Assembly (NCBI GenBank): GCA_964475855.1
Contig: CAYZAV010000001.1
Coordinates: 49,060 to 113,059, forward strand
Length of the DNA: 64,000 nt
Direction of reading: 5' to 3'
Origin: an uncultured Candidatus Saccharibacteria bacterium
GTDB lineage: Bacteria; Patescibacteriota; Minisyncoccia; Minisyncoccales; Staskawiczbacteraceae
Shown here: positions 52,180 through 62,065 of the stretch, piece by piece
Numbering within the stretch: the first letter of the stretch is position 1
Layout: each line of letters opens with the position of its first letter
Made by a program: the position numbers and the translations under genes
Notes under the pieces: generated by a model
Seen by the model: only the letters and a program-made list of their open reading frames with translations
What the model was told of the DNA's origin: nothing
The model's database searches: none

Positions 52180-53164
52180 AGAATTTGGATAATATTTTTT
52201 TCTTAATTCTATAACTATTACCATGCTTTATCAATCCCAAATATGATGCCATATTTTTCCTGTTTGATAATGTAAATGCTCTCTGCTTGGTTTTTGTACG
52301 CAATATTTTGTGGTCCTTAAAATTAACCCACCCCAAAAAATCCACGCCGGATGAAACCGTTTTGATAAAAACTTTTTTTGGATGAAGTTGCAGTTTCAAC
52401 TTTTATTCCAAAAAGTCAGCTAATTTTGATATTAATTCTTGAAGATAATCTTTGTTTTCTGAAAAAATTACGAAATCATCAGCATATCTGATGTAATATT
52501 TCGCTTTTAATTTGTGTTTTACAAACTGATCAAATTCGTTCATGTATATGTTGCAGAATAATTGTGAAGTCAAGTTTCCCAGTGGTAGGCCAACGCCGGG
52601 TTTCCCTGCGTTAAAACTGGAAATGATATTTTCTAGCAAAGATATTAACCGCTTATCGGCAATATATTGACGTAAAATTCTAATCAAAGCAACCTGGTCA
52701 ATAGAATGGAAAAACTTTTTAATATCACATTTTAATATCCAACAGGTACGAGTGCCATTTTTGCTCACCTTGTAGTAAAAATCCCTAAATCTTCTATTAG
52801 CACGATGTGTACTCTTTTCCAGCCTACACGAAAAAGAGTCCGAAATGAAGGTATCATCGAAAAACGGATACAAAACACGATATAGCGCATGGTGCAAAAG
52901 CCGGTCGCGTACCGAAGCTTTATGAATAATCCGCGGCTTAGGATCATTAATCTTAAATTCTTGGTATCCGCCATGCAGGTATGTGTCATTGGCTAAATCG
53001 TGGTGAAGTGTTAGGATATTATCCATCAAGTAAAATTCAAATTCCCGTACATCTTTTTTGTCCTTTTTGCCTCTGACAAACTCTTCAAAGGCCCAAAGCA
53101 AATTCTGTACGTGAATAATATCATCAAACCTATGCCGCAGTTGAATCTTCATAGCGATAATCAA
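52166..53164 (-). CDS. diversity-generating-retroelement reverse transcriptase, interrupted by an in-frame TAA at 52403..52405 (possible pseudogene, sequencing error or readthrough)
   Basis: RT motifs incl. GLPLGNLTSQLFCNIY (DGR-type [I/L]GxxxSQ in motif 4) and YIRYADDFVIF (YxDD). Thumb-like KLQLHPKK...GVDFLGW continues in the same frame after the stop. Confidence 0.75.
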
Positions 53165-53196
53165 AGCCCTTTAAGCCCCCCCCCACGCAATTTAGC

Positions 53197-53529
53197 TTGA
53201 CACTCATCCAAAAGCTGGTTTCAGTTTACAAATTGTGGCACGAAATTTTGCCCCATTTTTCTAATAATTCAAAGTATACCCTGGGGCATAAAATTGATTC
53301 CTTCTTTTTGGAAACCATTGAACGGGTGATAAAAGCCGGCTACGCTAGCAAAGCCGAAAAAGAACTATTCCTATTGGGCGCTTCCGCCAAGCTGGATATG
53401 CTTAAGTTTTTCCTGCAAATCGCCTGGAACATAAAATCGGTAGATAATAAAAAATACATTTTGCTTTCCGAAAAATTAAACGAAGTTGGCAGGATGTTGG
53501 GCGGATGGATAAAATCCCTCAGACAGTAA
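53197..53529 (+). CDS. four-helix-bundle protein of the Avd (accessory variability determinant) family, divergent from the RT
   Basis: 110 aa. SKYTLGHKIDSFFLETIERVIKAGYA...LDMLKFFLQIAWNIK pattern of the TIGR02436 / 23S-rRNA-IVS four-helix-bundle family. Located between RT and TR but on the opposite strand. Confidence 0.55.
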   Translation: MTLIQKLVSVYKLWHEILPHFSNNSKYTLGHKIDSFFLETIERVIKAGYASKAEKELFLLGASAKLDMLKFFLQIAWNIKSVDNKKYILLSEKLNEVGRMLGGWIKSLRQ

Positions 53530-53565
53530 AAACCACCTCAAAAAAGGTGGTAAAAACAAAGAGAG

Positions 53566-53693
53566 TTGCGGACGGCGGCGAAACGACAATTCGCATTCCA
53601 GCTATTGTCATACCAATTCAGGTTCAACTTACGCTTGGAGTCGTACTCGTTCTGATAGACCACGCTGTGGTTGTCACCCGGGTTACGCCACAC
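53566..53693 (-). repeat. DGR template repeat (TR)
   Basis: Matches 54037..54164 except at 23 positions, where this copy always has T on the plus strand (A on the coding minus strand) and the other copy has C, G or A. Intergenic. Confidence 0.85.
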
Positions 53694-53953
53694 AAAATAT
53701 GCAAGATATCTTCCCTGCCACCACCCCTCAAATACTTTCAGAGTTGTATCTTATTCGGTATCTACAATATACCCTGATATCTTGCACCAAGTATCTTTAT
53801 TTTTTAAAAAATCAGGGGCGACTCTCAAAGAAGCCTTGGCCGCTTTGAATCTGCATAATCCTGAAATATAGAATTCGGCTGCCCGAAGCCGTAACCTCAA
53901 GCATAATAACCTACTATCCAAATTCATCTTACCTATTTTATAAAAAAAGAAAA

Positions 53954-53977
53954 GCCATATTCGTAAACGAATATGGC
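53954..53977 (-). terminator. 10-bp-stem hairpin plus T-run ~55 nt downstream of VR (terminator and possible DGR hairpin)
   Basis: GCCATATTCG-taaa-CGAATATGGC. On the minus strand it is followed by TTTTCTTTTTTTAT. Confidence 0.5.
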
Positions 53978-54032
53978 TCTGCTCCAAGGCTCCACAAATC
54001 CATTTGGGAACCAGAGAACCAAGTGACCAATT

Positions 54033-54656
54033 TTACTTGCGGACGGCGGCGAAACGACAACGCGCAAACCAGCTACGGCCATACCAATACAGGAGCAACC
54101 AACGCATGGAGTCGCACTCGCGCAGACAGACCACGCTGCGGCGGCCACCCGGGTCACGCCACACTTTCCCCAATGCAATGATTGGGTACTTGCGTTGCAA
54201 CTGTGAGTGTTGCTCGCCAACGGCCAACACGTCTTCGGGGTCAGCAGGCCGGAAACCTTCTTTTTCCATAGCCGCAATGACGTCGTCAGATTCCATATTA
54301 CGGTCAAAATGGAAGAAAGTTATTTCCTTTTCCTGCTTGCCCATGCCGGTCAGTAGGAAACGCTCCTGGGTTATATCCTTATCATCCCAGTCATACTTCC
54401 CCGCCGTGATCATCTGGGCTAAGGTTCGGGAATAGTCCACCGTCACCTTGACGGTTTCGCGAACCACTACCTTGCCGCCGTTAATGATCAGTTCGGCGAT
54501 CTGGTTGATGAGGGATTCTCCCTCGGGCTTAACCAGCTTGCGGAAGATAGCGTCAGCATCGCCTCCGCGTTGCTGGAGCGCCTTGACCAACGCCTGGATG
54601 AAACTCATCACGACGCCAACGTAAGAAACCGATTCGCAACTCTTCATGGTACGCAC
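54033..54656 (-). CDS. DGR target protein (207 aa) with variable C-terminal ~43 residues
   Basis: VR covers the last ~43 codons up to the stop (…KVWRDPGGRRSVVCLRECDSMRWLLLYWYGRSWFARCRFAAVRK). GC-rich relative to the RT. Confidence 0.75.
   Translation of the reverse strand: MRTMKSCESVSYVGVVMSFIQALVKALQQRGGDADAIFRKLVKPEGESLINQIAELIINGGKVVVRETVKVTVDYSRTLAQMITAGKYDWDDKDITQERFLLTGMGKQEKEITFFHFDRNMESDDVIAAMEKEGFRPADPEDVLAVGEQHSQLQRKYPIIALGKVWRDPGGRRSVVCLRECDSMRWLLLYWYGRSWFARCRFAAVRK
54037..54164 (-). repeat. DGR variable repeat (VR) at 3' end of target gene
   Basis: See TR. The GC-rich 3' end (CGTTTCGCCGCCGTCCGCAA on the coding strand), identical in both copies, is consistent with an IMH-like region. 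Confidence 0.85.
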
Positions 54657-54777: not shown

Positions 54778-55329
54778 TTACCTAATTCTTGTCAAGTGCT
54801 TAGTAGTTAAATCCAGAATTTTAGATGATTTGGCGTTTTTAGCCCTTCCCCCGTCAATTATGAGGCCCACCAGGCGAGTTTTACCGAAAGTAGTAGTAAT
54901 ATCAGCTATGGAATTCAGTGGCTCTTGCCCTGCCAAATTGACCGAAGTTTGCACCAGCGGCCTGTCTATTTTTTTAAGTAATTTTTGTAAAAATGGGTGC
55001 CCGGGAATACGGATGGCAATGTTGTCTTTTTTAACGCCGTATAATTTTGTACCGGTTTTTCTTTTTAAAACGGCTGTAACTTTTCCCGGCCAATATTTTT
55101 TAAGCAGCTTTGATTGTCGCATATCAATTTCTGCAATTTGACGGGCCATGGAAATACTTTTTACAAATAGTGAAAGTGGTTTGGTTTTTGGCCGGCGCTT
55201 TATTTTGTAAATTTTATCTACTGCTTTTTTATTAGTGGCGTCTGCCAAAAAACCATATACGGTATCGGTTGGACAAATAATGACGCTGCCTTTTTTTAAA
55301 GCAGCAACTGCGTTATTTAGTTGTTCCAT
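54778..55329 (-). CDS. tsaC: L-threonylcarbamoyladenylate synthase (YrdC/TsaC domain)
   Basis: VIICPTDTVYGFLADA and other YrdC blocks. 183 aa. Confidence 0.85.
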   Translation of the reverse strand: MEQLNNAVAALKKGSVIICPTDTVYGFLADATNKKAVDKIYKIKRRPKTKPLSLFVKSISMARQIAEIDMRQSKLLKKYWPGKVTAVLKRKTGTKLYGVKKDNIAIRIPGHPFLQKLLKKIDRPLVQTSVNLAGQEPLNSIADITTTFGKTRLVGLIIDGGRAKNAKSSKILDLTTKHLTRIR

Positions 55330-56056
55330 CTTTTAAAAATTCTTCCTGGAACTTTTTAATATCCTCCTGTTTTCCAAAATCCATCCAGTTATCTTGCAAC
55401 TTTTTAATTTTAACTTTTTTGTCTTTTGCCAAAAGTGTTAAAACATCAGTTATTTCATATTCGCCGCGAGGTGATTTTTTTATCAAGGGTAGCTTTTCAA
55501 AAACATCCGGCGTAAATTTATACAAACTGGTATTTATTAAATCTCCCACAAACTCTTTTGGCTTTTCTATGATTTCTTGTAACAATTCGCCATCTTCTAT
55601 TAAAACGCCAAATCGCTCCGGATGCTCTGCCTTCAGCCCGCCAACATAGCAAAAGCTATCATCAATATTCATGGAAGCCAAGTCGTCAACCGAATAAAAA
55701 TTATCCCCCACCAAAGAAATAAATTGGTCGCGGCCTACAAAATCTTTGACGCATTTTAACGGGCAGGCAGTGCCATATTCTTTTTCTTTTGGTCCCAAAA
55801 TTTCAAATTGGTTCACTGTGCTAATGGTCGCGCCAACAGGAGCGGGGTAAGTTTGGAGAAATTCGGTAATCAAATCTTGGCGAAACCCCACCACTAGCAT
55901 AATATCCATGTACCCGGCCTCAAAAATATTATCCAGTAAATACACCAAAAACGGCCTATTATTGACTGTTATCAAGTGCTTTGACTTGTCACGGGAAAGT
56001 TCTTGCATGCGAGTACCCTGTCCCGCTGCAGAAACCACAACTTTTTTAATCGGCAT
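55313..56056 (-). CDS. sugar-phosphate nucleotidyltransferase (NTP_transferase domain)
   Basis: VVVSAAGQGTRM G-loop motif. 247 aa. Confidence 0.75.
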   Translation of the reverse strand: MPIKKVVVSAAGQGTRMQELSRDKSKHLITVNNRPFLVYLLDNIFEAGYMDIMLVVGFRQDLITEFLQTYPAPVGATISTVNQFEILGPKEKEYGTACPLKCVKDFVGRDQFISLVGDNFYSVDDLASMNIDDSFCYVGGLKAEHPERFGVLIEDGELLQEIIEKPKEFVGDLINTSLYKFTPDVFEKLPLIKKSPRGEYEITDVLTLLAKDKKVKIKKLQDNWMDFGKQEDIKKFQEEFLKDGTTK

Positions 56057-56057
56057 A

Positions 56058-58880
56058 TTAGATTACAAAATTAATCAATTTATTTGGAATAAAGATAACT
56101 TTTCTGATTTCCTTGCCTTCCAACCATGGTTGTAATTTAGGTGCAAGCAAGGCAAGATCTTGCATCTCCGCCTGGCTTAATCCAATTTTCACTTCCATTT
56201 TGTCGCGCACTTTTCCGTTTACGGAAACTATCATCATAATAGCGGTTTCTTTGACTTCTTCATGCTTTGGCCACGTTTTCAGATTCAAGCCCAGCTCAGC
56301 CGCCAAATGCGGCGCAAACGGTGAAAGAATGGCCAAGAATTTCTGCATATCTTTCTTGTCTAAACCAGTTTCTGAGGCACTCCACTCATTCACAAACGAC
56401 ATCATGGCCGAAACCGCCGTATTAAATTTCATTTCCTCAATATCTTCAGAAACCTTTTTAATGGTTTTATTGAGAGAAATTGTTAATTGTTTATTGTTTA
56501 TTGTTAATTGCGAGCCGAGGGCGAGCTTATATACTTTCTCCAAAAACCTTCTTGCCCCCACAATACCCTTGTCATCCCAAGGAATCATTTGCTCAAACGG
56601 CCCCATGAACATTTCATACACGCGCAGAGTATCGGCGCCATACTGCTTAGCCACGTCATCGGGGTTGATCACATTTCCGCGGGATTTAGACATTTTAACT
56701 GCTCCCGGCCCCAAAATAATCCCATGCGAAGTGCGCTTTTTATATGGCTCATTTCCTATTTCTTTTGGCACGGCGCCAATGTCCCACAAAAATTTAAAGA
56801 TAAACCGGGAATACAACAAATGCAACGTAGTGTGCTCCATGCCGCCATTGTACCAGTCCACAGGCATCCAGTAGTTAGTTAATTTCGGATTTCGGATTTC
56901 GAATTTCGAATTTCCTTGCTGATTTGCGGTCAAATAAGCAAGGTAGTACCAATTTGACCCAGCCCAATTCGGCATAGTATCCGTTTCACGCCGGGCAGGC
57001 TTTTTGCAAGTTGGACATTTTACATTCACCCATTTTTCTATAGCTGACAAAGGCGATTCTCCCGTATCCGTCGGCTGGTATTTTTTTACCTTGGGTAATT
57101 CAACGGGCAGTTGTTTTTCCGGAACTACAACCCAACCACAATCTTTACAGTTAATCATGGGAATCGGCTCTCCCCAATAATGTTGGCGCGAAAAAATCCA
57201 ATCGCGCAACTTATAATTGACCGTCATTTTCCCGCCGACAAAGAATGTCATTTCCACTTTGGATTTTTGTGAATCCATGCCCGAAAATGTTCCGGAATTT
57301 ACCAAAAACCCATCACCAGTATACACATAATTTTCTGTTGCTAATTGGTTTGTCCAATGGCCAACTTCTGCATGGGTCATGTGTTCGTAATCCAGCGTAT
57401 CGGCTGGCAGCCAGACAATGGCATGGGCATCCTGTTCTTTTTGTGAAACTTCTACCCGCTCTTTTCCAGCCAACTCAAACACAACAGCCGTGGTATATGA
57501 TATCCGGTTTTCATCTTTGTGTGCTGCAAAATATTCCGCCCGAGCTCTTCCCGGTAAAATCCTTTTCAGCACCACATTGGTAAAACCCGTTTCTTCCCTG
57601 ATTTCCCGCCTGGCGGCCTCCACTACATCTTCGCCATCTTCCACGCCACCCATCGGGAATGTGGTCCAGTCAAATTTTTTCCATTTCAAGCCCAAATAGT
57701 TTCCCGTGGCCGGGTCACGCACAATGGCATGCACATTTTGGCGCTCAACAAATTTCTTGCCTGCAACCGGGGGATTGCGTTTATCAACAATATTAGGAAC
57801 CACTACTTCTTTAATAGACAAGGCATACTTTTTAGCAAATATAAAATCGCGCTCGTCGTGTGCCGGGACGGCCATAATGGCTCCGGTGCCATAGCCCATC
57901 ATAACGTAATCAGCAATAAAAATAGGAACTTCCTGTCCTGTGGCCGGGTTAATGGCTTTTACTCCTTTTAATTCAACACCCGTTTTTTCCTTGTTTTCCT
58001 GTCGCTCTATATCTGATTTATTTTTCGCCTCTGCGATATATTGTTCAACTTCTTTTTTATTTTCTAACTGTAAAACATTGACCAGCGCGTGCTCCGGCGC
58101 CAGCACCAAAAACGTACAACCAAACAGCGTATCCGGCCTGGTTGTAAAAATAGGTATTGTAAATTGTGTATTGTTTATTGTAAATTCCAGCTCTGTTCCT
58201 TCGCTACGCCCAATCCAGTTTTTCTGCTGATCTTTGACGCGGCTTGGGTAATCCACCAAATCTAAATCTTTGATCAGCCGGTCTGCATACTTGGTAATTT
58301 TAATCAGCCACTGTTCCTTTTCCCGTTTTTGGACCGGCGTGCCGCAGCGTTCGCATTTCCCATTAATAACCTCTTCATTTGCCAAACCGGTTTTACAGCT
58401 AGGACACCAGTTAATGGCCATTTTTTCTTTGTAAGCCAAGCCCGCCTCAAATAATTTAACAAAAATCCACTGGGTCCATTTGTAGTATTTCAGGTCGGTG
58501 GTGTTTACTTCCCGGCTCCAATCAAATGAAAGCCCCAAGTTTTTCATCTGCTTGCGGAAATTGTCGGTATTTTTTTTGGTTACCACGGCCGGATGCACAC
58601 CTTTTTTAATAGCGTAGTTTTCCGTAGGCAGGCCAAAAGCATCCCAGCCCATAGGATACAGTACGTTAAAACCCTGTAGTCGCCGTTTGCGGGAAATGAC
58701 ATCCAAGCCAATATACGGCCGACAGTGACCCACATGCAAACCATCACCAGAAGGAAATGGGAATTCGGTCAACAGGTAAGCTTTAGGTTTTTTAGATGTA
58801 TTGCTAGCCGAAAAAATAGTGGAACTGTACCACATCTTTTGCCACTTTTTCTCTATTTTTTGAGGGTTGTATTTTTGCAT
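56058..58880 (-). CDS. leuS: leucine--tRNA ligase lacking the CP1 editing domain and carrying a Nudix-domain insertion
   Basis: HVGH (HIGH), KMSKS, TRPDT, AHDERDF, YKLRDWIFSRQHYWGEPIP. Only ~55 aa lie between TRPDT and the KTG region. ~140 extra aa sit between FAKKYALSIKEVV and TGDGFLVNSG, with the Nudix box GGVEDGEDVVEAARREIREETGF. Confidence 0.95.
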   Translation of the reverse strand: MQKYNPQKIEKKWQKMWYSSTIFSASNTSKKPKAYLLTEFPFPSGDGLHVGHCRPYIGLDVISRKRRLQGFNVLYPMGWDAFGLPTENYAIKKGVHPAVVTKKNTDNFRKQMKNLGLSFDWSREVNTTDLKYYKWTQWIFVKLFEAGLAYKEKMAINWCPSCKTGLANEEVINGKCERCGTPVQKREKEQWLIKITKYADRLIKDLDLVDYPSRVKDQQKNWIGRSEGTELEFTINNTQFTIPIFTTRPDTLFGCTFLVLAPEHALVNVLQLENKKEVEQYIAEAKNKSDIERQENKEKTGVELKGVKAINPATGQEVPIFIADYVMMGYGTGAIMAVPAHDERDFIFAKKYALSIKEVVVPNIVDKRNPPVAGKKFVERQNVHAIVRDPATGNYLGLKWKKFDWTTFPMGGVEDGEDVVEAARREIREETGFTNVVLKRILPGRARAEYFAAHKDENRISYTTAVVFELAGKERVEVSQKEQDAHAIVWLPADTLDYEHMTHAEVGHWTNQLATENYVYTGDGFLVNSGTFSGMDSQKSKVEMTFFVGGKMTVNYKLRDWIFSRQHYWGEPIPMINCKDCGWVVVPEKQLPVELPKVKKYQPTDTGESPLSAIEKWVNVKCPTCKKPARRETDTMPNWAGSNWYYLAYLTANQQGNSKFEIRNPKLTNYWMPVDWYNGGMEHTTLHLLYSRFIFKFLWDIGAVPKEIGNEPYKKRTSHGIILGPGAVKMSKSRGNVINPDDVAKQYGADTLRVYEMFMGPFEQMIPWDDKGIVGARRFLEKVYKLALGSQLTINNKQLTISLNKTIKKVSEDIEEMKFNTAVSAMMSFVNEWSASETGLDKKDMQKFLAILSPFAPHLAAELGLNLKTWPKHEEVKETAIMMIVSVNGKVRDKMEVKIGLSQAEMQDLALLAPKLQPWLEGKEIRKVIFIPNKLINFVI

Positions 58881-58922
58881 CTAATTGCTGGAATATATCA
58901 CAATTTCAGGGATTTTGGAAGA

Positions 58923-59742
58923 TTATAAGTTAAACAATATGCGTGCATTTTCCGTGGTTTTTTGGACAATCTCTTGGATACTGATATTTTTTAATCCGGC
59001 AATTTTTTGGATGGTATATTCCATGAAGATTGGTTCGTTTCTTTTTTGGGGCGCGGACGGTGGCGTCAAATACGGGCAATCCGTTTCAAGTAGCAAATAT
59101 TCCAGCGGAATGGTTTTGATAACCTGGTCAATATCAAATTTAAAAATAATGCCGTTAATACCAAGGTAAAAACCCAGTTCTACATATTTTTTAGCTTGCT
59201 GTAACGTTCCGGTAAAACAATGAACAACCCCTTTTTGACCACGCGTTTTTATTATCTCAATCACATCATCATGCGCCACACGACAATGTAAAATTACAGG
59301 CAGATTTAATTCTTTGGCCAAATCAAGCTGCTGCACAAAAACCGCTTTTTGCTTTTGCTTGAATTGATCCAGCTTAGTTGCGCTTTTGGGTTTATAATAA
59401 TAATCCAGGCCAATTTCCCCAATGGCCACCACTTTTTCTGACTGTGCCAACTCCCGGTATTTTTGCACATCAAAAACATCTTCGGTCTGGAATGTTTCCG
59501 TTTCATTAGGATCATTTTTTATCTTCAAAAATTCCGCCCCGGCATACATGGGATGCAGTCCAATAGTAGCAAAAAATCCTTCACCGTATTTTTCGGCAAA
59601 TTCCACTGCTGCTTTACTAGTGGCGTAGCCCGTTCCGACATTAATGGCCCGAATGTCTGCCTTTCGTGTCCTTGCCACCACTTCATCAATGTCATCATTG
59701 AAAGCGTAAAATTGCAAATGTGAATGAGTATCAATCATCATA
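58923..59742 (-). CDS. tatD: TatD-family metal-dependent hydrolase (DNase)
   Basis: MIDTHSHL, GLHP, GEIGLDY, ILHCR, HCF, ETDCPYL motifs. Start at the ATG at 59742. Confidence 0.85.
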
Positions 59743-59823
59743 GGCTCATTGTAATGCATCTTAATGCAAAGAAAAAGGCAGGTGATCAATAAAGATCTAC
59801 CTGCCATTGGTTTGTAGGGCCCA

Positions 59824-60030
59824 TTAAGCGGGCTTGGCGACGAAATTGCCGGAGTCAGTCCCGGCGGGCTTGCCATGGATGGCCTCATACACTTCCTGTC
59901 GGTGGACAGGAACTTCCTTGGGCGCGACAATGCCCAGACGGACTTTATCGCCGCGGATTTCCACGACGGTGATGGTAATGTCATCGTTAATGACAATACA
60001 CTCATTCTTCTTCCTCGACAAGACGAGCAT
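59824..60030 (-). CDS. csrA: carbon storage regulator CsrA (RNA-binding translational regulator), high-GC orphan
   Basis: MLVLSRKKNECIVINDDITITVVEIRGDKVRLGIVAPKEVPVHRQEVY matches the CsrA fold closely. Strong AGGAGGTG SD. GC clearly above neighbours. No fliW nearby. Confidence 0.8.
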   Translation of the reverse strand: MLVLSRKKNECIVINDDITITVVEIRGDKVRLGIVAPKEVPVHRQEVYEAIHGKPAGTDSGNFVAKPA

Positions 60031-60111
60031 TCAACACCTCCTACTAGATGTTAGATCCCCCCTCAAGTCCTCCATGGACTTGCCTATATTCATAATAGCA
60101 AGGCACTAATA

Positions 60112-61563
60112 TTAAGTCAATAGCCTAGGAAAAAGCGCCTGTTTTTGGTCGGATTTGATCGCATCGGCAATTTTTTGGGCAGATTCAGGCATAAAAGGCA
60201 AGAGCATCCCCGAGATTTCTTGCAGCGCGACAAGAATATCTCCAATCACTCGCGAAGCATTTTCTTTTCCCTCCCACGGCTTTTCTTCGTTGATATATTT
60301 ATCGCACGCCGAAATCAATTCCCAAATAGATTTTAACGCTTCATTAAATTTGAATTCTTCTAAATATTTCTTGGAATCTTTTTGTGTTTCAGTGATTTTT
60401 AATGTTAAATTTTCGCTTTGAATTTGTTTTTGATTTCGTGCTTCTGATTTCGGATTTCCCAATTTAGCCGCCATCGCCACTGTCCTTGCCACCAAGTTCC
60501 CGATGCCGCCCGCCAAATCCGAATTATACCGCTGCTCGAATTTTTCATAGGTAAAGTCCCCATCTTCCGTTGGCGTGATTTCACGCAATAAATAATAACG
60601 CACCGCATCAACGCCGTATTTTTTTACCAATTCAAACGGATCCACCACATTGCCCAAACTTTTTGACATCTTTTGGCCACCCGACAAAATAAATCCGTGG
60701 ATGAATATTTGCCTTGAATTTGGCAAACCGGCCGATAATAACATTGCCTGCCACATACTGGACTGCTGACGTAAATTATCTTTTCCCGCAACCTGGGTGC
60801 CCGGCCAAAAATCATTGAATTTTTGGGAGTTTTCCGGCCAACCGAGGGCAGAAATATAGCTTACCAAGGCGTCAGACCATACATACATGACATGTTTTTC
60901 ATCGCCTAGCACATCAACCCCCCAGGGCATTTTTTCTTTCAGTCGCGAAACACTGAAATCCTGCAACCCCTTTTTAGTAAATTCGGTTATTTCATGCAGG
61001 CGCGAAGCAGGAACCACAAAACCTGGGTTCTTCGCATAAAAATCCAGCAGTGGTTGTTGGTATTTGGAATATTTGAAAAAATAATTTTCTTCCTCAATTA
61101 ATTCAATGTCCAAGTTAGGATGGATGGGGCATTTACCATGCTCAAGTTCTGAATCCATTTTTTCCAACTCACAGCCAACACAATATTTTACTTTGTAATT
61201 TTTTTTATAAATATCGCCATTGGCCGAGCACCGTTTCCAAAATTCCTGGGCGGCTTTTATATGGTGCTCATCGGTCGTACGGATAAAATTGTCGCACGTC
61301 ACATTAAGTGCCGCTTTTAAATCATTAAATTTGGGCGCATAGATATCGCAATACGTTTTTGGATCAACATTGGCCTCCTGTGCTTTACGGTAAATTTTCA
61401 CCCCATGTTCATCGGTCCCAAAATTAAAAAACACTTCAAAACCCTGTTGTCTCTTAAACCGGGCAATTACATCAGCCTGGATTATTTCCAGCGCAAAACC
61501 GATGTGTGGTTCGGCATTCACATACGGCAGGGTGGTAGTAATATAAAATTTCTTGTTTTCCAT
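60112..61563 (-). CDS. metG: methionine--tRNA ligase (compact form)
   Basis: PYVNAEPHIGF (HIGH-like), KMSKS, zinc knuckle CVGC...CPIH, anticodon-binding domain. Start at the ATG at 61563. Confidence 0.9.
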   Translation of the reverse strand: MENKKFYITTTLPYVNAEPHIGFALEIIQADVIARFKRQQGFEVFFNFGTDEHGVKIYRKAQEANVDPKTYCDIYAPKFNDLKAALNVTCDNFIRTTDEHHIKAAQEFWKRCSANGDIYKKNYKVKYCVGCELEKMDSELEHGKCPIHPNLDIELIEEENYFFKYSKYQQPLLDFYAKNPGFVVPASRLHEITEFTKKGLQDFSVSRLKEKMPWGVDVLGDEKHVMYVWSDALVSYISALGWPENSQKFNDFWPGTQVAGKDNLRQQSSMWQAMLLSAGLPNSRQIFIHGFILSGGQKMSKSLGNVVDPFELVKKYGVDAVRYYLLREITPTEDGDFTYEKFEQRYNSDLAGGIGNLVARTVAMAAKLGNPKSEARNQKQIQSENLTLKITETQKDSKKYLEEFKFNEALKSIWELISACDKYINEEKPWEGKENASRVIGDILVALQEISGMLLPFMPESAQKIADAIKSDQKQALFPRLLT

Positions 61564-61594
61564 GGTACAATAAGCAAATTCTAACAAAAAATCT

Positions 61595-62065
61595 ATGATT
61601 TTACTAGCTCACATGCTCTTTGGCGCGGCTGTCGGTTCACTAACGGGAAATATCTATATGGGGATGGCATCAGCCATATTAAGCCACTATTTTTTAGACC
61701 TATTCCCACATATTGAATATTTGAAATCAACCGAGGCATCTGTCAATAAAATAAAAAGTGGTAACAAAAAGGAGTATATTGCCGACGGCATAAAAGTACT
61801 GATTGATTTTTTACTGGCCATTGCAGTTATTTTTTCCATTTCCAGCAACCAACCGGCACTATATTTGTTTGCCATCATCGCCATTATTCCCGATGGCCTG
61901 ACGGTCACGACCCATCTTTTCCCAAACCGTATCTTGCAAAAGCACCACCAAATCCACGGTGGGCCCATACATTACCTGACTAAACAAAAAAACTTCCCGT
62001 TGTTTTGGAAAGTATTCAGTCAGGCGTTGGCCGCTGCCTTTAGTATCGCCGTATTGGCGGTTTAA
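61595..62065 (+). CDS. hypothetical membrane protein (YdjM-like metal-dependent hydrolase fold possible)
   Basis: Four hydrophobic helices with His/Asp-containing loops. 156 aa. Confidence 0.45.
   Translation: MILLAHMLFGAAVGSLTGNIYMGMASAILSHYFLDLFPHIEYLKSTEASVNKIKSGNKKEYIADGIKVLIDFLLAIAVIFSISSNQPALYLFAIIAIIPDGLTVTTHLFPNRILQKHHQIHGGPIHYLTKQKNFPLFWKVFSQALAAAFSIAVLAV

Follow-up and report, generated by a model that had tools for sequence, protein, structure and literature searches.

Bacterial aminoacyl-tRNA synthetases (aaRSs) are usually seen as architecturally conservative, the accretion of extra domains being a hallmark of the eukaryotic enzymes. The leuS gene in the 64,000-nucleotide stretch of DNA considered here (the window; uncultured Candidatus Saccharibacteria bacterium, contig CAYZAV010000001.1, positions 49,060 to 113,059) encodes a leucyl-tRNA synthetase (LeuRS) with a Nudix hydrolase domain inside it, and raises the question of whether this domain stands in for the CP1 editing domain or has been added to it, and of what it might hydrolyze. 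An initial annotation, made from the sequence alone, had taken the protein for a LeuRS without CP1 and deficient in editing. We find that the Nudix domain lies within an intact CP1, at about position 146 of the 185 positions of the editing-domain profile, roughly three quarters of the way along, and does not replace it. An essential synthetase thereby harbors, in its proofreading domain, a second catalytic domain that is seemingly active, an arrangement conserved in more than 100 sequence clusters of the candidate phyla radiation (CPR), at two sites and in up to three copies. The relevant features of the gene, in window positions and amino acids (aa) of the protein, are as follows, Tt denoting Thermus thermophilus LeuRS.

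56058..58880, minus strand: leuS, a 940-aa bacterial-type LeuRS with an embedded Nudix domain (translation of the open reading frame)
58725..58736, minus strand: HIGH motif (HVGH, aa 49-52) of the synthetic site (translation)
57801..58223, minus strand: N-terminal two thirds of the CP1 editing domain (aa 220-360; PF13603, ungapped against Tt LeuRS)
58128..58145, minus strand: TTRPDT (aa 246-251), the threonine-rich motif of the editing domain, which corresponds to T247-T252 of Tt and E. coli LeuRS
57846..57890, minus strand: editing motif GTGAIMAVPAHDERD (aa 331-345), with D342 and D345 (alignment with Tt LeuRS; translation)
57327..57800, minus strand: inserted Nudix hydrolase domain (aa 361-518), without counterpart in Tt LeuRS
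57582..57650, minus strand: Nudix box GGVEDGEDVVEAARREIREETGF, of the form GX5EX7REUXEEXGU (G411-F433), matched at every fixed position (translation)
57504..57536, minus strand: X-loop region EYFAAHKDENR (aa 449-459), with the subfamily-specific motif (Y/F)FAxHKxxNR
57213..57326, minus strand: C-terminal part of CP1, with the strand that leads back into the catalytic core (aa 519-556), aligning from Tt 376 onward
56682..56696, minus strand: KMSKS motif (aa 729-733; translation)

The protein is a member of the bacterial LeuRS family, and each of the defining features that we tested was present. It scored 943.2 bits against the NCBIfam model TIGR00396 (leuS_bact; cut-off 548.4), the insert breaking the match into three stretches, and a phmmer search of the PDB paired it with T. 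thermophilus LeuRS (1h3n, E = 2e-209). A full-length AlphaFold2 model built with 112 sequences (mean predicted local distance difference test score, pLDDT, 90.9; predicted template modeling score, pTM, 0.81) matched LeuRS structures in Foldseek, with E = 1.8e-77 to 2bte and a template modeling score of 0.82 to E. coli LeuRS. Conservation was assessed in an alignment of 121 sequences, consisting of the window protein and its 120 best-scoring full-length matches; counts out of 97 given below refer to the Nudix-bearing sequences within this alignment. H49, G51 and H52 of the HIGH motif were invariant (97/97) and the KMSKS residues were kept in 95-97, so that the HIGH, KMSKS and editing residues occurred in at least 95 of the 97 homologs and mostly in all of them. 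The protein resembles the canonical bacterial enzymes (T. thermophilus 1H3N/2BTE; E. coli 4AQ7/4ARC) in its HIGH and KMSKS motifs, in having CP1 at the bacterial position, in the editing motifs TTRPDT and GTG...HDxRD, and in its anticodon-binding and C-terminal domains. It differs from them in having the 158-aa Nudix domain in place of a 13-aa loop (Tt 363-375) and in being without the leucine-specific domain (Tt ~580-636), since it passes from aa 724 to 729 where Tt LeuRS passes from 579 to 637 (region 56682..56710). The LeuRS is complete and, by the residues that it keeps, editing-competent, and both leucylation and post-transfer editing activity are predicted for it. At the start of the gene (58836..58880, the first 15 codons), public gene calls begin at M16 (925 aa, P0012), while the 940-aa start (MQKYNPQKIEKKWQ...) pairs with residue 1 of T. 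thermophilus LeuRS and is on record as P0279.

The integrity of CP1 was evident from several lines of evidence. The Pfam model of the LeuRS editing domain (PF13603) matched aa 220-366 over profile positions 1-146 of 185 (E = 7.9e-62), and after the Nudix domain the last strand-helix of CP1 (aa 519-556) leads back to the catalytic core, with G524 and S529 in this C-terminal part conserved in at least 95% of the 97 homologs. T246, T247, R248, D250, T251, Y330, G331, D342, R344 and D345 were invariant (97/97). D342 and D345 pair with Tt D344 and D347, and T251 and D345, which align to the equivalent Tt residues, are the counterparts of E. coli T252 and D345. The idea that CP1 was missing had drawn on a spacing of only ~55 residues between TTRPDT and the KTG region; this spacing is real, but it is the usual one, aligned without a gap to T. 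thermophilus LeuRS, and no sign of CP1 loss. Furthermore, the TTRPDT landmark is itself the threonine-rich editing motif of CP1. The loss of CP1 is ruled out by the Pfam match, the PDB alignment and the residue conservation, and the supposed editing deficiency is contradicted by the same motif and by the intact D342 and D345. A comparison with the CP1-less, editing-defective LeuRS of Mycoplasma mobile (3ZIU) is instructive here: both enzymes come from bacteria with reduced genomes, but 3ZIU aligns solely outside CP1, whereas the window protein has the full CP1 with all of its editing residues.

The insert itself could be delimited residue by residue, since aa 1-360 correspond to Tt 1-362 and aa 519-724 to Tt 376-579, which places the 158-aa insertion at aa 361-518. 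It preserves the reading frame and interrupts a variable loop on the surface of CP1, within the C-terminal third of that domain. Pfam NUDIX (PF00293) matched aa 383-505 with 49.6 bits (cut-off 21.1, E = 5e-13), and the insert modeled alone adopted, with high confidence (pLDDT 95.3, pTM 0.88), the alpha/beta/alpha sandwich of the Nudix fold. Both motif and fold place it in the Nudix superfamily, in agreement with the initial annotation, which had recognized an intact Nudix module between '...SIKEVV' and 'GDGFLVNSG...' and had located the box exactly. The insertion that it had drawn at 57321-57800 is likewise real, although its start takes in two residues of CP1 and belongs at 57327. The conserved flanks of the insert are YGTGAIMAVPAHD and GxLxNSG. 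A recent mobile-element insertion was rejected, since the flanks of the insert in the window showed no direct or inverted repeats of note, the GC content at third codon positions was similar in the insert (0.449) and in the rest of leuS (0.462), and the insert is common to many lineages.

The residues expected to carry catalysis are nearly invariant among the 97 homologs. In the Nudix box, G411 was kept in 96, E417 in 97, R425 in 96, E426 in 96, E429 in 95, E430 in 96 and G432 in 96, while the positions around these fixed residues vary freely. The X-loop is conserved to a similar degree (Y450, 74 Y and 22 F; A452, 95; H454, 93; K455, 95; N458, 95; R459, 96), Y450 lying 17 residues past the end of the box at F433, and R380, W405, F408, E482 and W490 are also strongly conserved (91-97). 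The near-invariance of E417, R425, E426, E429 and E430 leads us to infer a metal-dependent activity: the insert is probably an active Mg2+-dependent pyrophosphohydrolase that would operate in addition to aminoacylation and post-transfer editing and would not take their place. The catalytic motif equals the active sites of the synthetase in its degree of conservation, and the purifying selection on it matches that on the LeuRS core. Non-enzymatic Nudix proteins do exist, for example CF Im25 (PMC7705103), and the insert might by analogy be a catalytically inert structural or tRNA-binding appendage that merely keeps the fold; this is highly improbable, given that the five residues are kept in 95-97 of the 97 homologs amid freely varying surroundings.

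The fusion is widespread. An insert of ~158 aa was found at the same position in 97 of the 121 aligned sequences, and the organism names on hits from the full-length search were Parcubacteria, Patescibacteria, Paceibacter and similar, which points to a Patescibacteria/Parcubacteria-type genome as the probable origin of the window. An exhaustive HMMER scan of 1.84 billion 50%-identity representatives, with the insert and its 20-aa flanks as the query, returned 477 matches at E <= 1e-3 and 224 at E <= 1e-10; the best 150 representatives comprised 125 LeuRS-linked, 21 small free-standing and 4 other proteins. A profile of the insert only retrieved 277 proteins at E <= 1e-10, the top scorers being nearly all free-standing CPR Nudix proteins of ~155-165 aa, and the N-terminal extension of the insert, 'PxxIDxxNPPxxGKKxVER', is also present in free-standing homologs. 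The module belongs to a Nudix subfamily specific to the CPR, members of which also occur as separate proteins of ~160 aa. Among the matches listed in a GTDB scan, which is not a census, full-length inserts occurred in metagenome-assembled genomes (MAGs) labeled Patescibacteria, Saccharibacteria and Magasanikbacteria, and also in MAGs with the unverified labels Clostridia, Bacilli, Mycoplasmatota, Muribaculaceae and Gammaproteobacteria. Eubacterium brachy (L045) was ruled out as a carrier, the canonical loop being found there. Two further open reading frames were seen in these genomes: a stand-alone one of 287 aa (L018, 5770-6630), in a MAG labeled Clostridiales (label unverified), with degenerate CP1 flanks around the Nudix domain ('ATLLVPAHIPEHFELAKKYNLP...Nudix...YTGDGIMMNSEEMNG'), and a free-standing 189-aa homolog in a Saccharibacteria MAG (L016, 5950-6516). 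Both are possibly excised or remnant copies.

The position and number of the Nudix domains vary from one LeuRS to another. Nudix domains of no fewer than three subtypes are housed in the same CP1 loop, namely A, to which the window belongs, B ('GGRLFVGGTR') and C ('YRIPGGGY'), the latter two confirmed as Nudix by Pfam with 42 and 60 bits. A second insertion site lies at the N-terminal junction of CP1 (window aa ~207-241) and receives one or two tandem Nudix domains of the type of the free-standing protein P0008. In five LeuRSs of 940-1305 aa (P0073, P0080, P0132, P0134 and P0135) these stand in addition to the copy at aa 361, bringing the total to two or three, with up to three in P0073, P0080, P0132 and P0134. 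LeuRS has captured the Nudix module repeatedly, at two sites flanking CP1; the captured domains belong to no fewer than three subtypes and number from one to three per protein. Among eight free-standing homologs whose gene contexts were inspected, two lay beside aaRS genes, one of them 2 nucleotides upstream of LeuRS and the other directly after CysRS; the remaining six contexts were unrelated to aaRSs, and the neighborhoods were accordingly not informative as a guide to function. The link with LeuRS is nevertheless not accidental, because of the 97 of 121 aligned sequences, the 125 of 150 representatives, the second site, the multiple copies, the occurrence of subtypes B and C in the same loop and the two free-standing copies adjacent to aaRS genes. 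This repeated, multi-site and multi-copy capture argues for some functional coupling, without telling which.

Clues to the substrate came from structural relatives. The best match of the insert's profile in the PDB was lupin diadenosine tetraphosphate (Ap4A) hydrolase (E = 8e-8), and the third was the Ap4A hydrolase of Aquifex (E = 1e-5). With the C-terminal half of the Nudix domain, from the X-loop onward, a sequence search of the PDB gave no match at E <= 10. R380 of the motif 'VERxNV' pairs with the arginine of 'YRRNVG' in the lupin enzyme, and an aromatic residue is found 16-17 positions past the box in subtypes A, B and C, as a pair at +16/+17 in B and C. In hydrolases of diadenosine polyphosphates (ApnA), the specificity tyrosine lies in the X-loop at ~17 aa past the box (PMC5389931); Y450 occupies this position, and a role in specificity is predicted for it. 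The insert appears to resemble the Ap4A-hydrolase/RppH group (lupin 1F3Y/1JKN, Aquifex 3I7U, T. thermophilus Ndx1, E. coli RppH, NUDT2 and mycobacterial MutT1/Rv2985) more than any other characterized Nudix group, the discrimination being weak: it shares with these enzymes the fold, the box, the N-terminal arginine ('ERxNV' versus 'YRRNVG') and the aromatic residue, whereas its identity to them is 13-25% and it has its own X-loop motif, an 'NPPxxGKK' extension and a location inside a synthetase.

We tentatively favor, with a probability of about 0.4, the possibility that the insert is a scavenger of ApnA and nucleoside polyphosphates coupled to the synthetase that produces them. The aaRSs make Ap3-5N and p4A, and the asymmetric Ap4A hydrolases NUDT2, RppH/NudH and MutT1 are Nudix enzymes (PMC7705103). 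Under this proposal, ATP or polyphosphate would attack the enzyme-bound aminoacyl-adenylate on the aaRS, giving rise to dinucleoside or nucleoside polyphosphates, and the insert would cleave adenine (di)nucleoside polyphosphates such as Ap4A, Ap3A, Ap5A and p4A, so that the fusion would join a scavenger of the by-product (Ap4A to AMP and ATP) to the enzyme that makes it. If the Nudix domain does act on dinucleoside polyphosphates, a source of Ap4A would be physically linked to an Ap4A sink in organisms of minimal metabolism.

Several observations weigh against such a scavenger. The nearest structure, 2AZW, is a free-standing MutT/Nudix protein of Enterococcus faecalis with 16% identity to the insert and no known function or substrate. 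The RppH models of NCBIfam scored only 19-28 bits on the window LeuRS, the best ~28 bits facing cut-offs of at least 116 (range 116-259), and matched the box region only; with the scores this far under the cut-offs, the insert is not filed in the Ap_nA hydrolase/RppH subgroup. The conserved X-loop motif (Y/F)FAxHKxxNR corresponds to no motif known to us. Most of the gene neighborhoods of free-standing homologs are unrelated to aaRS genes, a scavenger has no need of insertion into CP1 or of three copies, and the patchy presence of the insert among close orthologs is unusual for a housekeeping function.

The conserved arginine also bears on another reading, in which the insert is an RppH-like pyrophosphohydrolase or decapping module for RNA 5′ ends, carried on the mobile CP1 and acting on tRNA-Leu or other LeuRS-bound RNA with 5′-triphosphate, Np4 or NAD-type caps. 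The invariant R380 aligns with the arginine of the lupin 'YRRNVG', a motif that RppH carries as well; the basic conserved residues of the X-loop (H454, K455 and R459) could hold a phosphate backbone, and the host protein is an RNA-binding enzyme. However, mature tRNAs bear a 5′-monophosphate and we found no rationale for 5′-end processing on LeuRS, free-standing homologs occur without an RNA-binding partner, and the RppH scores are those just given, so that we regard this function as quite unlikely. The neighbors of the insert in the fold search include NudI and MutT1, which would suit a generic house-cleaning enzyme (for instance in the sanitation of 8-oxo-(d)GTP, ADP-ribose or nucleoside triphosphates) that is mechanistically untied to leucylation and fused only so that it is expressed together with an essential gene, the genome being very small. 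The abundance of free-standing homologs in varied gene contexts, and the loss of the module elsewhere without disturbance of leuS or of synteny, are in keeping with this. Such a function would nonetheless leave unexplained why 125 of the 150 representatives of one subfamily are LeuRS-linked, and why there are two CP1-flanking sites, up to three copies and at least three subtypes in one loop; we consider it unlikely, if the nearest competitor to the favored scavenger of ApnA.

The evolutionary behavior of the insert was examined at the syntenic locus, where the orthologs share the order HisRS, M16 peptidase, AI-2E transporter, MetRS, TatD, LeuRS, NTP-transferase, Sua5, ..., SHMT, ..., TopA, with a reverse transcriptase gene before SHMT in two of three loci. 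Three states of the CP1 loop occur there: the Nudix domain is present (window); the loop is the canonical one of 5 aa (P0048, 812 aa); or a larger deletion has also taken the last strand-helix of CP1 and is accompanied by H341D (P0038 and P0028; ~765 aa). The nearest orthologs of the window LeuRS (P0028, P0034, P0035, P0037, P0038 and others; loci L087, 8001-10292, and L088, 7370-9661; up to 84% core identity, same synteny) are without the Nudix domain and also without the last strand-helix (window aa ~519-545), and all of them carry H341D (AVPADDERD) while retaining the threonine-rich motif and D342/D345, from which these nearest relatives are judged to have a trimmed editing domain. Compensation by a nearby free-standing copy was rejected, none being found within ~18 kb of the Nudix-less genes, and none lies elsewhere in the window.

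On a neighbor-joining tree of the LeuRS core, the presence and absence of the insert is patchy. Across 95 fusions, core and insert identities showed essentially no correlation (Spearman 0.056), and pairs at 75-85% core identity ranged from 24% to 92% in the insert. Within a subtype, the insert equals the essential core in conservation, the identities in core and insert being 79% versus 85% for P0013 and 71% versus 78% for P0018, while the subtype has been replaced at 75-80% core identity in P0031 and P0033. This decoupling fits the exchange or replacement of cassettes, probably through the very conserved flanks, although a star-like phylogeny also lowers the correlation. Moreover, the LeuRS P0076 (937 aa) has an unrelated insert of 141 aa, without a Pfam match, exactly in the loop that elsewhere bears the Nudix domain, which indicates that the CP1 loop is a general insertion hot spot.

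These patterns raise the possibility of a swappable protective cassette, in which the Nudix domain, with or without an added hydrolase, detoxifies nucleotide-type inhibitors of LeuRS (mimics of aminoacyl-adenylates, of the agrocin-84/TM84 or microcin-C kind) or conflict nucleotides at the target enzyme. The patchiness among same-locus orthologs, the uncorrelated identities, the replacement of subtypes, the variable copy number and the unrelated insert of P0076 are typical of fluctuating selection. Against this, PADLOC gave no defense-family match beyond a generic Nudix-box hit, on which ground membership in anti-phage defense was rejected, within the window we saw neither a toxin or immunity gene nor a second copy of leuS, and we know of no Nudix enzyme that cleaves phosphoramidate or sulfamoyl adenylate mimics. 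A star-like phylogeny can also give a low core-insert correlation. We consider this explanation very unlikely.

Other enzymes have entered the same region. P0114 ('Candidatus Paceibacter', 1304 aa, MCC2630506.1) carries two Nudix domains and, after CP1 at window aa ~581, a serine alpha/beta hydrolase of 199 aa; a domain of this kind (~200 aa, PF06821/PF00561) is also found in the LeuRSs P0096, P0123 and P0137, and P0036 and P0054 have further inserts of ~120 aa without an assigned domain at aa 531 and 581. Such a hydrolytic build-up around CP1, which would include a potential esterase, together with the location of the module in the editing domain, could be read in favor of a revised form of the idea in the initial annotation, namely that the Nudix domain adds a step of pre-transfer proofreading, the hydrolysis of non-cognate aminoacyl-adenylates after their release, to the intact post-transfer editing by CP1. 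In its first form, with Nudix replacing lost editing, the idea loses its premise because CP1 editing is intact. Beyond this, an aminoacyl-adenylate is an acyl-phosphate and not a pyrophosphate, to our knowledge no Nudix enzyme hydrolyzes an acyl-adenylate, and among the features tested none separates cognate from non-cognate adenylates; we therefore think this activity improbable.

More speculatively, and with considerable doubt, the CP1 region of CPR LeuRSs could be a platform on which exchangeable cassettes of hydrolases dock (between one and three Nudix domains, which come in several subtypes, the serine alpha/beta hydrolase and other domains). These would extend quality control from aminoacyl-tRNA to nucleotide-level substrates, such as aminoacyl-adenylates, adenylylated by-products, RNA 5′ ends and adenylate-mimic toxins, as a cis-acting layer of proofreading and detoxification shaped by the exchange of cassettes between lineages. 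If the Nudix domain acted on adenylates, RNA ends or inhibitors, the synthetase would have a novel form of quality control or a novel way of protecting itself.

The LeuRS-Nudix fusion is real, widespread and apparently undescribed, as had been supposed from the outset: full-text literature searches found no paper describing it, although much subscription literature lay outside the searched set and a prior description is possible. Among the best 25 of the 32 NCBIfam families matched by the window protein, none was specific to a LeuRS with a Nudix domain. The model for IleRS with a GNAT domain (NF040702) was among the matches; it describes a comparable combination of a class I editing synthetase with a small-molecule enzyme domain but differs both in the synthetase and in the added domain. 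Public databases nevertheless contain the fusion proteins in abundance, both Pfam domains having been precomputed for them, and several are named merely 'class I tRNA ligase family protein' by NCBI, while two free-standing Nudix homologs bear the submitters' name 'leuS'. A dedicated family model would mend these names in annotation pipelines.

Translation-related genes cluster around leuS in the window (54778..62000), with HisRS further upstream, and this synteny is retained in relatives with and without the Nudix insert. The neighboring genes are as follows.

60112..61587, minus strand: MetRS
between MetRS and leuS, minus strand: TatD
55313..56056, minus strand: nucleotidyltransferase
54778..55329, minus strand: Sua5/TsaC

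A diversity-generating retroelement (52403..54656, minus strand) is located ~1.4 kb away from leuS on its 3′ side, with the nucleotidyltransferase and Sua5 genes in between. Its parts are as follows.

52403..53164, minus strand: reverse transcriptase open reading frame (RVT_1)
53566-53693: template repeat, 128 nucleotides
54037-54164: variable repeat, 128 nucleotides, at the 3′ end of a 207-aa open reading frame (54033..54656)

The two repeats differ at 23 positions, all of which are adenines in the template (A to G, 11; A to T, 7; A to C, 5).

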